This document shows positions 17,077 to 20,859 of a stretch of 22,005 nt of DNA, piece after piece. Numbering within the stretch: the stretch's first letter is position 1; every line of letters starts with the position of its first letter. Both the position numbers and the translations under genes were made by a program. The DNA is from an uncultured Candidatus Sericytochromatia bacterium (lineage in GTDB: Bacteria > Cyanobacteriota > Sericytochromatia > UBA7694): positions 1 through 22,005 of the forward strand of contig CAYFGW010000055.1 of assembly GCA_964342365.1 (NCBI GenBank). Direction: 5' to 3'. The notes below the pieces were generated by a model. The model was given only the letters and a program-made list of their open reading frames with translations, did no database searches and was not told where the DNA came from.

Positions 17077-17385
17077 ATGGAAGAGCGAAATCATCAATCT
17101 TTAAACACGGTGCGTCTTGACCCTGAACGCTGTAAAGGCTGCGAACTATGTCTTGGGGTGTGCCCTAATGGTCTGTTTGAACCGGCTGCTGCGGATAAAG
17201 AACCCAACGCCCTGGGATTTGTGCCTGTAGACATGGTATGGCCAGAGTACTGTATCAACTGCATGCGCTGTGTGGTGGTATGTCCGGATGATGCCTTTGA
17301 CGTGCCGGAGAATCCGCAGCCCAATTGGCAGGGACAGGTGTTTGGTTTGAGTCGTCGCTTTCATCGTTTCTGGGGTGCCCCATGA
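17077..17385 (+). CDS. 2-oxoacid:ferredoxin oxidoreductase delta subunit (2x[4Fe-4S] ferredoxin)
   Basis: It has two CxxCxxCxxxCP motifs, CKGCELCLGVCP and CINCMRCVVVCP. Its stop overlaps the next start (ATGA at 17382-17385). Confidence 0.8.
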   Translation: MEERNHQSLNTVRLDPERCKGCELCLGVCPNGLFEPAAADKEPNALGFVPVDMVWPEYCINCMRCVVVCPDDAFDVPENPQPNWQGQVFGLSRRFHRFWGAP

Positions 17386-18389
17386 TTGTTCAACAACAAG
17401 CTGCCGTCTACAACGGTTTTGAAATGTGTATTGAAGCTACCCTGGATGCCCATTGCCGCCATTATTTTGCCAGTCCCAGTCCCATGCACTCCCTCTTGCT
17501 CAATGAAGGGCTGGTGCGCTATCAGCGTCGCCACGGTACCTGTTTGCAAACCCAGACCCCGGTGGAAGCGCTGGCCATGGCCCAGGGGGTGGGGCAATTG
17601 GGAGACGTGCCGCTGGTGAGTAGCAACTACACGGACTTTCTCAGTGTTCAGCACCTGCTGCACCACTTCTTTCAGGAAGAAATCCCCTGTGTTTACGCGG
17701 TGGTGCTGTTTCATCCGCCTGAATTTGCGGGAGCCAGTTTATTGCCCTATGGCTTTGCCTGTTTGCAAAATGCCTGGCCCGGCAGCGGTTTTCCTCTGTT
17801 GCATCTGATGCCTTCCCATTTGAGTCAAATGCAAAAAAACGTACAACAGGCCTTCGCTCTGGCGCGACGCTTTCAACAACCGGTATTACTATTGCTAGAT
17901 CCCATGCTGCTCAGCACCACACAAAACGTACAGTCTGAAAATTTTGAACCTCAAAAATTTGACGCGGTGCTGACCACCCCTTCCGGTGCCAATACCCTGC
18001 GTCGGGCACGGCAGCGACACCAGCACATGCAGCAACTGGCTCCGCAGTTTTTGCGTCGCTGGATTCCTGCCAGACATCCAGAATTTGGTGTGCTGGCCGC
18101 CGGTGCTCTCGGGGGCTGGCTCCTGGGCATGGAATGGCACGAAAACGCCGTTCTGGTACCAGATACCCTTTATCCCGGCGTGCTAAACGAGCTTCAGACC
18201 TTATTGCAGGGCGCACCCCTGTACGTACTGGAGTTTGCTCCCGGGTGTCTTTCAGAACAGCTGCAACAGCATTATGATTATGACTTTGTGTCGCTGAAAT
18301 TGCCCTGGGAGCGTTCTGCTCCCGTGGGGTTACAGCCCATGATTTACGCTGAAATCGCCGCCAGTCAACGGAGGCATCATGACCTTTAA
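17382..18389 (+). CDS. 2-oxoacid:ferredoxin oxidoreductase alpha subunit (KorA/PorA-like), divergent
   Basis: Its residue pattern is collinear with the KorA N-terminal domain (..YNGFEMCIEATLDAHCRHYFASPSPMHS.. versus ..GNEAIARGAIEAGCRFYAGYPITPSS.., and QTQTPVEALAMAQGVGQLGDVPLVSSNYTDFLSV versus QMEDEIASMGAVIGASWAGAKAMTATSGPGFSLM). The track ORF start at 17325 is upstream of the coupled ATG at 17382. Confidence 0.65.
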   Translation: MIVQQQAAVYNGFEMCIEATLDAHCRHYFASPSPMHSLLLNEGLVRYQRRHGTCLQTQTPVEALAMAQGVGQLGDVPLVSSNYTDFLSVQHLLHHFFQEEIPCVYAVVLFHPPEFAGASLLPYGFACLQNAWPGSGFPLLHLMPSHLSQMQKNVQQAFALARRFQQPVLLLLDPMLLSTTQNVQSENFEPQKFDAVLTTPSGANTLRRARQRHQHMQQLAPQFLRRWIPARHPEFGVLAAGALGGWLLGMEWHENAVLVPDTLYPGVLNELQTLLQGAPLYVLEFAPGCLSEQLQQHYDYDFVSLKLPWERSAPVGLQPMIYAEIAASQRRHHDL

Positions 18390-19086
18390 ATACTGTAGCG
18401 GCTGTAGTCATAGCCAACTGCACCTTTTGCTGGCACGGGTACTCGGAGAGCGACCGGAAGGAGAGCGCCTGCTGGGAGTTAGCGGCACAGGGTGCAGCGA
18501 GGGCATGGGCCAGTATTTTAATGTTCCTTTTGTGTCTGCCGCTGCTGGACAGGCCCCCGCCGTGGCGGCGGGCATCAAGCGCAGTCGTGCTGACCATTTG
18601 GTGTTTACCTATCAGGGAGACGGAGACCTTGCCGCCAGAGGACTGGACACGTTGATGAGTGTGGCAGCCCGACGAGAATCGATTACCGTGATTTGTCTGA
18701 ACAATCTGGTGATGGCCGGTAGCGGTGGCCAGATGAGCCCCACGAGTTTAACGGGGCAGGTGACCACCAGTACCCGCCTGGGGCGTTCTTACTCTCGGAT
18801 GGGAAAACCCCTTAAACTCACGGAGACCGTGGCCCGTATGCCCGGTGTGGCCTTTGCACAGCGGGTTGCGCTGCACAAACCCTCTGCGGTAGAACAGGCG
18901 CGGTTGGCCTTAGAAGACGCCTTTGCCTTCCAGAAGAATGTTCAAGGTCTCAGCTTTATTGAAGTGCTGGGCTGGTGCCCGCCCTACTGGGACTGTACAC
19001 CGGTAGAAGCGAGACAACGTCTTGAAAACCAGGTGTTTAAGGTGTTCCCTCTGGGTATTTTTCGTAACGAGGGCTTAAAAGTATGA
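18379..19086 (+). CDS. 2-oxoacid:ferredoxin oxidoreductase beta subunit (TPP-binding; KorB/PorB-like)
   Basis: YCSGCSHS matches WCPGCGHG. ..GDGDLAARGLDTLMSVAARRESITVICLNNLVMAGSGGQMSPTS.. matches [44 protein letters not shown]. All four cluster Cys are present (C6, C9, the C in SGTGCS, and the C-terminal WCPP). A GGAGG SD is present, and the gene overlaps the alpha stop by 11 nt. Confidence 0.8.
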   Translation: MTFKYCSGCSHSQLHLLLARVLGERPEGERLLGVSGTGCSEGMGQYFNVPFVSAAAGQAPAVAAGIKRSRADHLVFTYQGDGDLAARGLDTLMSVAARRESITVICLNNLVMAGSGGQMSPTSLTGQVTTSTRLGRSYSRMGKPLKLTETVARMPGVAFAQRVALHKPSAVEQARLALEDAFAFQKNVQGLSFIEVLGWCPPYWDCTPVEARQRLENQVFKVFPLGIFRNEGLKV

Positions 19087-19619: not shown

Positions 19620-20131
19620 TGGAAGACATTCACGATCTCAAGCCCTTGATGCAGCTGGATTTTCCCTGGCTGAGCTTTCTGGTGTTTTCAGGCCTGGTGC
19701 TGGGCGTGCTGCTGGTGTTGTTTTTTGTGTTGCGCTATCTGTGGAAACGGCGCAAGCCCCGGACGAAAAAAACCGTTCCCGTACCGCCGCCGAAACCCCG
19801 CGTTAACCCCAGAGAAGCTGCTCTAAAAGCCTTAAACAAACTCCGACCCGACGCCACGGCCCCGGACGCTTTTTATGAGGAACTGGAGCGCATTTTGCGC
19901 CGCTTTTTAGAAGGGGCCACTGACGAAGCCGTCACCAGTTACACTGCCAGCGAGCTGAGTATGTTTTTTCAAAAGCGCCGGGCCCACGTGGCCTTCAACG
20001 ATCTGGCCACGGTTTTACAACACGGAGAACGCACCAAATTCGCCGGACATGCCCTGACTGAGCAATTACAAGCTCAGGACCTGAGCACGGTAACCCGCAC
20101 CGTCAAAGATTTTAGATTGGAAGAAGTTTGA
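19619..20131 (+). CDS. DUF4381-family single-pass membrane protein, a family usually found in MoxR/DUF58/BatA-type operons
   Basis: MEDIHDLKPLMQLDFPWLSF, then a transmembrane helix, then RRKPRTKK, then ...ALKALNKLRPDATAPDAFYEELERILRRFLEGATDEA...SELSMFF. This matches my recollection of the DUF4381 pattern (DIhLPePvsWWP..TM..RR...ALreLdaL.....lsalLRRval..). The start overlaps the gamma stop (TAATG). Confidence 0.6.
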   Translation: MEDIHDLKPLMQLDFPWLSFLVFSGLVLGVLLVLFFVLRYLWKRRKPRTKKTVPVPPPKPRVNPREAALKALNKLRPDATAPDAFYEELERILRRFLEGATDEAVTSYTASELSMFFQKRRAHVAFNDLATVLQHGERTKFAGHALTEQLQAQDLSTVTRTVKDFRLEEV

Positions 20132-20859
20132 TGTTTAAACGCCTTTACGCTCCCCTGCTCTGTATCACGTTCATGGGCCTTTCTGCTCCCGTGGCCCTCG
20201 CCGAATCCGTTGTGGATCTCGCCCTGGATTCCACTTCACCTCCTTCCTCGCCTCTGGAAGCGACCCCCACCCTCGAAGCTTTGCTCAACACCCCCGATAT
20301 GCGCGAACCCATTAACCCCGCTGCTTATGATGCCGCCCGCATGGGCCAGGCCATTTTGCACGCCACCAACCTCATGCGCGCCAAACACAAGCTGCCCCTG
20401 TTTTTTCACAGTCCCGCTTTAGAAAAGGCTGCTTACGATCACAGCAAAGCCATGAGCAAACACAACTTTTTTTCTCATACCAGCGTCATCAAAGGCTCTG
20501 AAAAGATGTCTCAGCGGCTGGCCAAAGTAGGCATTACCAACGCTTACAGCGCCGAAAACATTGCTCAGGCCAGTGCCCTCAACTACACCTCAGGCAAACC
20601 CGTCTATTCCCCCAAAACCAACGGCGGCTACTTCAGCTACGAATACAAGGGCACCCCGCTTAAGCCCCGCACCTACGCCGATGCCGCCCGCAAAGTGGTC
20701 AAACAGTGGATGGACTCTCCCGGTCACCGCCGCAACATCTTGAACCCCCGCCTCAAGTACCTCGGCGCGGGCCTGAGCCTCTTTGAAAAGAAATCCTTTT
20801 ACAATATGCTGTACTTTAACGCCACCCAGAATTTTTCGTCTAAAAAGGGATCGCTTTAA
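20128..20859 (+). CDS. Secreted CAP/SCP (PR-1-like, YkwD-type) domain protein
   Basis: The signal peptide is MMFKRLYAPLLCITFMGLSAPVALA|ES. CAP motifs are present (HSKAMSKHNFFSH, AENIA, VKQWMDSPGHRRNIL, YLGAGL). An ATGA overlap joins it to the DUF4381 gene. Confidence 0.8.
   Translation: MMFKRLYAPLLCITFMGLSAPVALAESVVDLALDSTSPPSSPLEATPTLEALLNTPDMREPINPAAYDAARMGQAILHATNLMRAKHKLPLFFHSPALEKAAYDHSKAMSKHNFFSHTSVIKGSEKMSQRLAKVGITNAYSAENIAQASALNYTSGKPVYSPKTNGGYFSYEYKGTPLKPRTYADAARKVVKQWMDSPGHRRNILNPRLKYLGAGLSLFEKKSFYNMLYFNATQNFSSKKGSL

Follow-up and report, generated by a model that had tools for sequence, protein, structure and literature searches.

The closest functionally described relatives of the locus reported here are the 2-oxoacid:ferredoxin oxidoreductases (OFORs), whose active site has been dissected in the enzyme of Sulfolobus tokodaii. 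There, the substrate carboxylate is bound by Arg344a and by the YPITP motif, in particular its Thr256a, and single mutants at these positions lose all or most of their activity; Glu294a forms a hydrogen bond with N1′ of thiamine pyrophosphate (TPP) and thereby activates the cofactor, while a GDG motif (89b–91b) and Asn118b bind Mg-TPP (PMC5020499). Some departure from this scheme is on record, as oxalate oxidoreductase has a variant motif, YPIRP, and yet retains the substrate-site Arg (PMC5020499). In this study, we analyzed a divergent set of OFOR-like genes at positions 17077–20859 of a 22,005-nt stretch of DNA from an uncultured Candidatus Sericytochromatia bacterium (contig CAYFGW010000055.1 of assembly GCA_964342365.1), which we refer to as the window. 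It belongs to a TARA Oceans metagenome scaffold of 35.7 kb, and its nearest relatives suggest a most likely marine member of this non-photosynthetic sister class of the Cyanobacteria. Six consecutive plus-strand open reading frames (ORFs) in this interval encode, in this order, the δ, α, β and γ subunits of an OFOR-like complex, a DUF4381 membrane protein and a CAP protein.

Proteins of the DUF4381 family are usually encoded in MoxR/DUF58/VWA (Bat-type) operons, where VWA proteins are their usual partners. The Sericytochromatia and Blackallbacteria are non-photosynthetic relatives of the Cyanobacteria and are used for inferring ancestral cyanobacterial metabolism. In the source databases (JGI, NCBI), the proteins of the present locus are named 2-oxoglutarate ferredoxin oxidoreductase subunits, and our literature search found neither this clade nor an association between OFORs and DUF4381 described. 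In the following, we describe the replacement of key active-site residues throughout the clade and the constant linkage to a DUF4381 gene, and we discuss why the locus may well encode an OFOR derivative with a new function.

Replaced active-site residues in the α subunit

The α subunit is barely recognized by existing family models: it scores 16.7 bits with Pfam POR_N, under the cut-off of 27, and 38.9 bits with VorB, for which the cut-off is 399. The initial annotation had pointed out that FASPSPMHS stands in place of the GYPITPS block, which we can confirm; YPITP corresponds to S31-P-S-P-M35, with Pro34 at the position of the Thr. Two further losses go beyond that claim. The TPP-activating Glu (E294a in StOFOR1, E64 in DaPFOR) is replaced by Pro60, and the carboxylate-binding Arg (R344a in StOFOR1, R114 in DaPFOR) by Phe110. 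These correspondences were obtained from three independent alignments, one of the clade profile with PDB chains (1yd7_A, 8ys5_A and 5b48_A) and the others MAFFT alignments that include canonical α subunits, and they are anchored because the HMMER alignment to the chain numbering of 5b48_A reproduces E294, R344 and T349 exactly. As to the question raised in the initial annotation of whether the substrate and TPP sites are intact, Thr, Glu and Arg of α are all replaced, whereas the GDG..NN elements of β are kept in the window.

The same replacements extend across the clade. Canonical QAESE has become QAESP, QAETP or QTQTP, Pro or Ala occupies the Glu position throughout, and the canonical Arg is replaced by Phe, Tyr, Asn, Asp or Ala. 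The replacement motif itself, Y-F/Y-x-x-P-S/T-P, and the LNEG that follows it rank with the most strongly conserved parts of the α subunit in this clade, most of their positions being invariant, and we therefore favor remodelling over decay. The α subunit is also far more isolated than β: a word-indexed search with α returned 11 proteins, and a profile search of 1.84 billion cluster representatives only eight clusters at E<1e-30.

Cofactor and cluster sites in the β, δ and γ subunits

The β subunit is better conserved. Its close clade, which includes the Candidatus Blackallbacteria protein P0022, spans 52–77% identity, and next beyond it stand thousands of ordinary β subunits of about 250 residues from Desulfovibrionales and Bacillota, which are 43–48% identical to the β subunit of the window. 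With OorB Cys19/22/53/202 as reference ligands for the proximal cluster, the four cysteines C6, C9, C39 and C200 are invariant, C6 and C9 aligning with Cys19 and Cys22. In the window, GDG (80–82) and NN (108–109) are kept at the same spacing as D90 and N118 of StOFOR1.

Two substitutions in β had been highlighted before, CSGCSHS and AAAGQA, next to the retained cysteines and GDG. Both are present as described, but only one of them proves informative. In three solved OFORs, the CxGCxxx block takes different forms (CWGCGDG, CPGCGNF, CPGCGHF), and it reads CPGC[HT]HG in the nearest canonical relatives; CSGCSHS thus lies inside normal variation, save for its final Ser. The HGR motif, by contrast, is retained by the nearest canonical β subunits as well as by the three solved structures, whereas it is AGQ in the window and AGQ, PGQ, PGL or PGK across the clade. 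A further clade-specific change is MAGSGGQ in place of YGMTGGQ, whose canonical form is likewise kept in the nearest canonical β subunits and the three solved structures.

In the δ subunit, both CxxCxxCxxxCP motifs are invariant among the 11 lineages listed below, as are GxGGQG and (I/M)RGG in γ. After its second cluster motif, δ carries a C-terminal tail of about 25 residues (N-x-x-G-x-V-F/Y-G-x-S...H; window 17300–17385), which is conserved in the clade but absent from the canonical 77-residue δ subunit of the nearest canonical relative, L011, and which could serve as a docking element.

A conserved five-gene unit

Neighbourhoods were compared for eight β homologs (seven from the close clade and the intermediate P0031), four genome loci and three metagenome contigs. 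In all lineages with enough sequence (the window, L002/3, L004/5, L006/10, L007, L008, L009, L016, L017, L018 and L019; 11 of 11), the genes δ-α-β-γ-DUF4381 are tightly packed in this order, so that the supposed linkage of the OFOR-like genes to DUF4381 does recur in relatives. The DUF4381 gene lies directly 3′ of γ in each of them and not in a MoxR/DUF58/VWA operon. Every named lineage with the unit belongs to Candidatus Sericytochromatia or Blackallbacteria. When a single genome of each GTDB species was scanned, four loci emerged, all in metagenome-assembled genomes of Candidatus Sericytochromatia, and a scan of metagenome contigs with the α alignment yielded only three short contigs, which are informative only for the adjacency of a vault protein gene described further below.

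All ORFs of the five genes are intact in the 11 lineages. The ratios of non-synonymous to synonymous substitution rates (dN/dS), estimated by the Nei–Gojobori method for L004 and L008, the closest pair and the sole one near enough for a usable estimate (dS ~1.4–1.7), are 0.06 for δ, 0.07 for α, 0.04 for β, 0.05 for γ and 0.09 for DUF4381. In this one pair, all five genes are under purifying selection, and none of them is a pseudogene. The α, γ and DUF4381 proteins diverge faster than β, with identities against L006 of 43%, 47% and 38% versus 66%.

The DUF4381 orthologs score 21–40 bits on PF14316, and several match the Pfam DUF4381 family. Ten of these fifth proteins were aligned (the ortholog of L008 was recognized by tblastn only and stands outside this alignment); they share an N-terminal motif, M-E/Q-D-I-H-x-L/I-K-P-L...FPW, a single transmembrane helix, a stretch rich in Lys and Arg, a Pro linker and a C-terminal domain that is helical. 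In the window, the hydropathy peak spans residues 20–38 and is followed by KRRKPRTKK, and the positive-inside rule suggests that the C-terminal domain lies in the cytoplasm, where the OFOR-like complex would be located as well. An AlphaFold2 model from the single sequence has a predicted local distance difference test score (pLDDT) of 61, with only the transmembrane helix (16–43) being confident.

VWA genes occur a few kilobases from the unit, but not adjacent to it, in the window, L004, L006 and L007. In the window this gene (10047–12074, plus strand) encodes a VWA and TPR protein that has no close homolog among the VWA proteins of the other three loci, each of which has a VWA protein of 589–597 residues (L004 12972–14765, L006 12947–14725, L007 14678–16447). 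The VWA gene is followed by an HTH/TPR gene in L004 and L006, while in L007 a TPR gene precedes it. In L019, the five-gene unit is immediately followed, on the other strand, by bacterial microcompartment (BMC) shell genes (BMC, EutN/CcmL, CsoS1D-like) and an aldehyde dehydrogenase gene (9171–11971, minus strand).

Organization of the locus in the window

The coordinates of the locus are given in Table 1; for α, we took as start an ATG inside a longer ORF that begins with TTG. With δ, α, β and γ homologs encoded together, the locus has the composition of a four-subunit OFOR, as seen in Pfam and NCBIfam matches and in PDB matches to OFOR α and β chains. The NCBIfam models matched are OorD, VorB/KorA, PorB_KorB and a γ-type model, with every score five- to twenty-fold under the family cut-off.

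Table 1. Features of the locus and its divergent neighbour in the window (aa, amino acids)
Feature	Coordinates	Strand	Remarks
Near-palindrome, invariant and AT-rich	16984..17006	.	Core TGTAT-TAT-ATACA; MVP/δ intergenic region
δ subunit, 2x[4Fe-4S] ferredoxin-like, 102 aa	17077..17385	+	Pfam Fer4 x2; top NCBIfam match OorD
α subunit, 335 aa	17382..18389	+	Pyrimidine-binding domain I and divergent domain II
β subunit, 235 aa	18379..19086	+	TPP diphosphate-binding domain with proximal [4Fe-4S] site; TPP_enzyme_C 42.5 bits
γ subunit (domain III), 178 aa	19083..19619	+	Pfam POR 33.9 bits, residues 15-80 only
DUF4381-family single-pass membrane protein, 170 aa	19619..20131	+	PF14316 31.5 bits (cut-off 27.2)
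Secreted CAP/SCP (YkwD-like) protein	20131..20859	+	PF00188 64.8 bits (cut-off 21.1)
Major vault protein (MVP) homolog, 812 aa	14524..16962	-	MVP_shoulder 108.6 bits, Vault_3 35.9 bits

The overlaps between stop and start codons reported for the six ORFs are all there: ATGA at δ/α and β/γ, an 11-nt overlap at α/β, TAATG at γ/DUF4381 and TGATG at DUF4381/CAP. They are compatible with the obligate co-translation proposed in the initial annotation, which such overlaps may suggest. A consensus scan within the operon gave promoter-like and terminator-like sites at no more than chance frequency; this lends no support to an internal promoter or to a terminator after γ, although it does not prove a single transcript. 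The gene order, which had been regarded as unusual, turned out to be shared with Helicobacter pylori OorDABC and with L011. Rfam and tRNA scans of the window returned no matches. A role in defence was considered and dropped, PADLOC giving no matches for any operon protein or for MVP.

The sixth gene is not conserved along with the other five. The N-terminus of the CAP protein, MFKRLYAPLLCITFMGLSAPVALA-ES, resembles a Sec signal peptide by inspection. Its linkage to the operon, once thought to be part of the association, is seen in just two of the 11 lineages, namely in the window and, frameshifted, in L007. This sole other ortholog (L007 12582–13495) consists of two ORFs that overlap in different reading frames, which points to a pseudogene or else to a frameshift or an error of the assembly. 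Lying outside the conserved unit, the CAP gene is a lineage-specific, incidental downstream passenger that overlaps the DUF4381 stop codon. After its stop codon, the GC content falls to 0.38–0.44 (20860–22005), and a spacer of about 270 nt, AT-rich, leads to a gene for a protein of 985 residues that runs off the window (a faint PT-repeat match, seen in L001).

The major vault protein gene and its intergenic element

Upstream of the operon and divergently transcribed lies a gene for an MVP homolog, which had not been mentioned before. Its product has the shoulder and repeat domains and is about 60% identical to bacterial proteins named 'major vault protein'. The gene is adjacent to the operon and divergent in eight contigs of one subclade (the window, L004/5, L006/10, L007, L008, L013, L014 and L015), with outer flanks that vary among these lineages. 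In L016/L020 it is still divergent and stands 5.7 kb from the operon, and in L002/3, L009, L017, L018 and L019 it is absent from the neighbourhood of the unit. The intervening segment (L020 4335–9755) encodes a second TPP enzyme (TPP_enzyme_N/M/C, 540 residues), an aldehyde dehydrogenase, a PAP2 protein and a cyclic-nucleotide-binding (cNMP-binding) protein. MVP homologs as such are widespread, with more than 6800 matches, about 60% identical, from Planctomycetota, Polyangiaceae and Riflebacteria, and a Planctomycetota MVP locus has no OFOR-like neighbour. The one paper on bacterial MVP homologs that our search returned contains no gene-context analysis.

Between the two transcription units, upstream of MVP, the window contains one copy of the near-palindrome TTAAGTGTATTATATACATTTAA, where none is expected by chance. 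In every MVP-linked locus, the core of this element recurs with at most one mismatch, though synonymous sites are saturated. Since the element remains with MVP in L020 (position 9921), and not with the operon, it is best read as a likely promoter or operator of MVP. The same observation weakens the idea that it co-regulates both transcription units.

The MVP link is a case of synteny at the level of a subclade, with an uncertain functional meaning. It is quite unlikely, in our estimate, that bacterial vault-like particles have a dedicated partner in the OFOR-like/DUF4381 complex, be it as cargo, as an assembly or membrane-docking factor or as a redox sensor. If they did, the divergent arrangement of MVP and δ-α-β-γ-DUF4381 would be the first genomic clue to the working partner of bacterial MVP, and the conserved adjacency in any case provides a testable lead on bacterial vault proteins.

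Other genes in the window and outside the clade

Between an enoyl-CoA hydratase gene and MVP, the window encodes a protein of 534 residues (12900–14504, plus strand) that could be assigned to no family, gives only faint coiled-coil-type matches and has no counterpart beside MVP in the other loci. Further upstream, a colicin-immunity-like protein (4289–4618, plus strand; PF09204, 49 bits) is encoded beside two ORFs that have no Pfam match (3131–3592 and 3644–4132) and a small deaminase-like ORF (2733–3134), and the group at 2733–4618 may be a toxin/immunity cassette.

Outside the clade, the intermediate OFOR-like α proteins P0140–P0143 also have no YPITP, with GCPSILN, GNTRPCT and GYPHAPQ instead, and in L012 (1–1768) an α-β pair is followed by a phosphoribosyl pyrophosphate (PRPP) synthase gene in place of γ. 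Degenerate OFOR-like pairs may thus be more widespread than this clade.

Interpretation and alternative explanations

With a probability of about 0.55, we favor the view that the locus encodes a selectively maintained, neofunctionalized derivative of an OorDABC-type OFOR with a constant DUF4381 membrane partner. At the sequence level, an electron path over three clusters, two [4Fe-4S] clusters in δ and one in β, is kept, together with the TPP diphosphate site of β in most members and the intact glycine-rich motif of γ. Canonical 2-oxoacid binding and TPP activation would be lost, and the oxidation of 2-oxoacids in dependence on coenzyme A (CoA) would presumably no longer be performed. The complex would then most likely operate as a redox module with a new, non-canonical substrate, acceptor or partner, and the DUF4381 protein, as a fifth subunit or as an anchor, would keep it on the cytoplasmic side of the membrane through its C-terminal domain. 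The initial annotation had envisaged either a neofunctionalized OFOR or an undescribed functional association; both ideas are supported for the OFOR–DUF4381 pair and do not extend to CAP.

Several points weigh against this view, and some of them speak for a bona fide 2-oxoacid:ferredoxin oxidoreductase that evolves fast, has a compensated active site and is merely localized or stabilized by DUF4381. The lost Glu could be replaced by a nearby one, either by E62, two residues away, in the subclade of the window or, in other members, by a Glu that precedes the Pro by two residues; glyoxylate carboligase is a TPP enzyme that works without the canonical Glu (cited in PMC5020499), and the YPIRP of oxalate oxidoreductase shows that the motif itself tolerates variation. 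All four subunits are, moreover, recognizable OFOR homologs, the identity of β to ordinary β subunits is substantial, the cluster ligands, GDG..NN and the γ motifs are retained, and purifying selection is strong. We still regard an ordinary enzyme, the main rival view, as unlikely, given that three residues, each of which abolishes or strongly lowers StOFOR1 activity when mutated, are all replaced clade-wide, that the Arg kept even in oxalate oxidoreductase is among them, that HGR of β is lost as well and that α falls below its Pfam cut-off. Further reservations about a neofunctionalized complex concern the evidence at hand: the AlphaFold2 model of α, built from an 11-sequence clade alignment, is unusable at a pLDDT of 40, so that the substitutions were mapped by sequence alignment only; it is gene linkage that suggests a physical interaction between DUF4381 and the complex; and the GDG motif varies within the clade, being GEG in the β homologs P0022 (Blackallbacteria) and P0027 and GDT in the β homolog P0020 (loci of the three: L002, L019), which means that TPP is perhaps not bound in some members.

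This relaxed GDG, along with the lost catalytic residues, could also indicate a non-catalytic pseudoenzyme or Fe–S scaffold, functionally tied to a vault-like particle of MVP, whose cargo or membrane-docking complex it might be. The divergent adjacency of MVP in eight subclade contigs and its position 5.7 kb away in a ninth, along with differing outer flanks, would fit such a tie. We consider it unlikely, however: the five-gene unit occurs in five lineages without a nearby MVP, the many thousand MVP homologs of numerous phyla face eight α clusters, the Planctomycetota MVP locus is without such neighbours, the intergenic element goes with MVP and not with the operon when the two are separated, and adjacency within one subclade could be inherited synteny. 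It is extremely improbable, finally, that a decaying OFOR operon came to lie beside unrelated DUF4381 and CAP genes by chance. While the CAP gene is indeed not conserved, and α and γ evolve much faster than β, the ORFs are intact in 11 lineages, dN/dS is about 0.04–0.09, DUF4381 is orthologous and holds the same position in every lineage, and the new α motif is conserved clade-wide. We therefore reject chance for the five-gene core and accept it for CAP.

A neofunctionalized OFOR derivative would matter in several respects. Metabolic reconstructions of Sericytochromatia and Blackallbacteria could wrongly credit these organisms with a 2-oxoglutarate or 2-ketoacid oxidoreductase (OGOR/KOR) step that the complex probably cannot perform. 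The clade would also offer a clean natural case of an OFOR scaffold whose Fe–S wire persists while, under purifying selection, its TPP and substrate site has been rebuilt, and DUF4381 gains a second conserved genomic partner.

Comparison with known systems

The most similar described complex is H. pylori OorDABC, a 2-oxoglutarate:acceptor oxidoreductase known from the cryo-EM structure 8YS5. It consists of the same four separate subunits, encoded in the same δ-α-β-γ order, and shares the proximal four-Cys cluster on β and the two clusters on δ. Its chain 8ys5_C is the best solved match for β, and 8ys5_A is among the two best for α, with 1yd7_A slightly higher. Compared with OorDABC, the α subunit of the window is without YPITP, the TPP-activating Glu and the substrate Arg, and the β subunit is without HGR, whereas the unit adds the C-terminal tail of δ and the co-encoded DUF4381 membrane protein.

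The nearest ordinary relatives of β are found in the canonical Kor/Oor-type operons of Desulfovibrionales and Bacillota, such as that of Pseudodesulfovibrio indicus (L011, whose contig ends at γ). These have the same gene order and equally tight spacing, but keep GYPITP, QAESE, R-GGPG, CPGCxHG, HGR and YGMTGGQ, and their α subunits match POR_N and PFOR_II normally. StOFOR1 and StOFOR2 of S. tokodaii (PDB 5B46–5B48) belong to the same superfamily and provide the reference for residue roles by structure and mutagenesis; they differ in being of the two-subunit (ab)2 type without δ, in keeping YPITP, E294a and R344a, and in being active on pyruvate and 2-oxoglutarate. Lastly, the DUF4381 proteins of MoxR/DUF58/VWA operons belong to the same Pfam family as the fifth protein of the unit and have the same build, sharing the conserved DIH..P motif at the N-terminus, the single transmembrane helix and the helical C-terminal domain.

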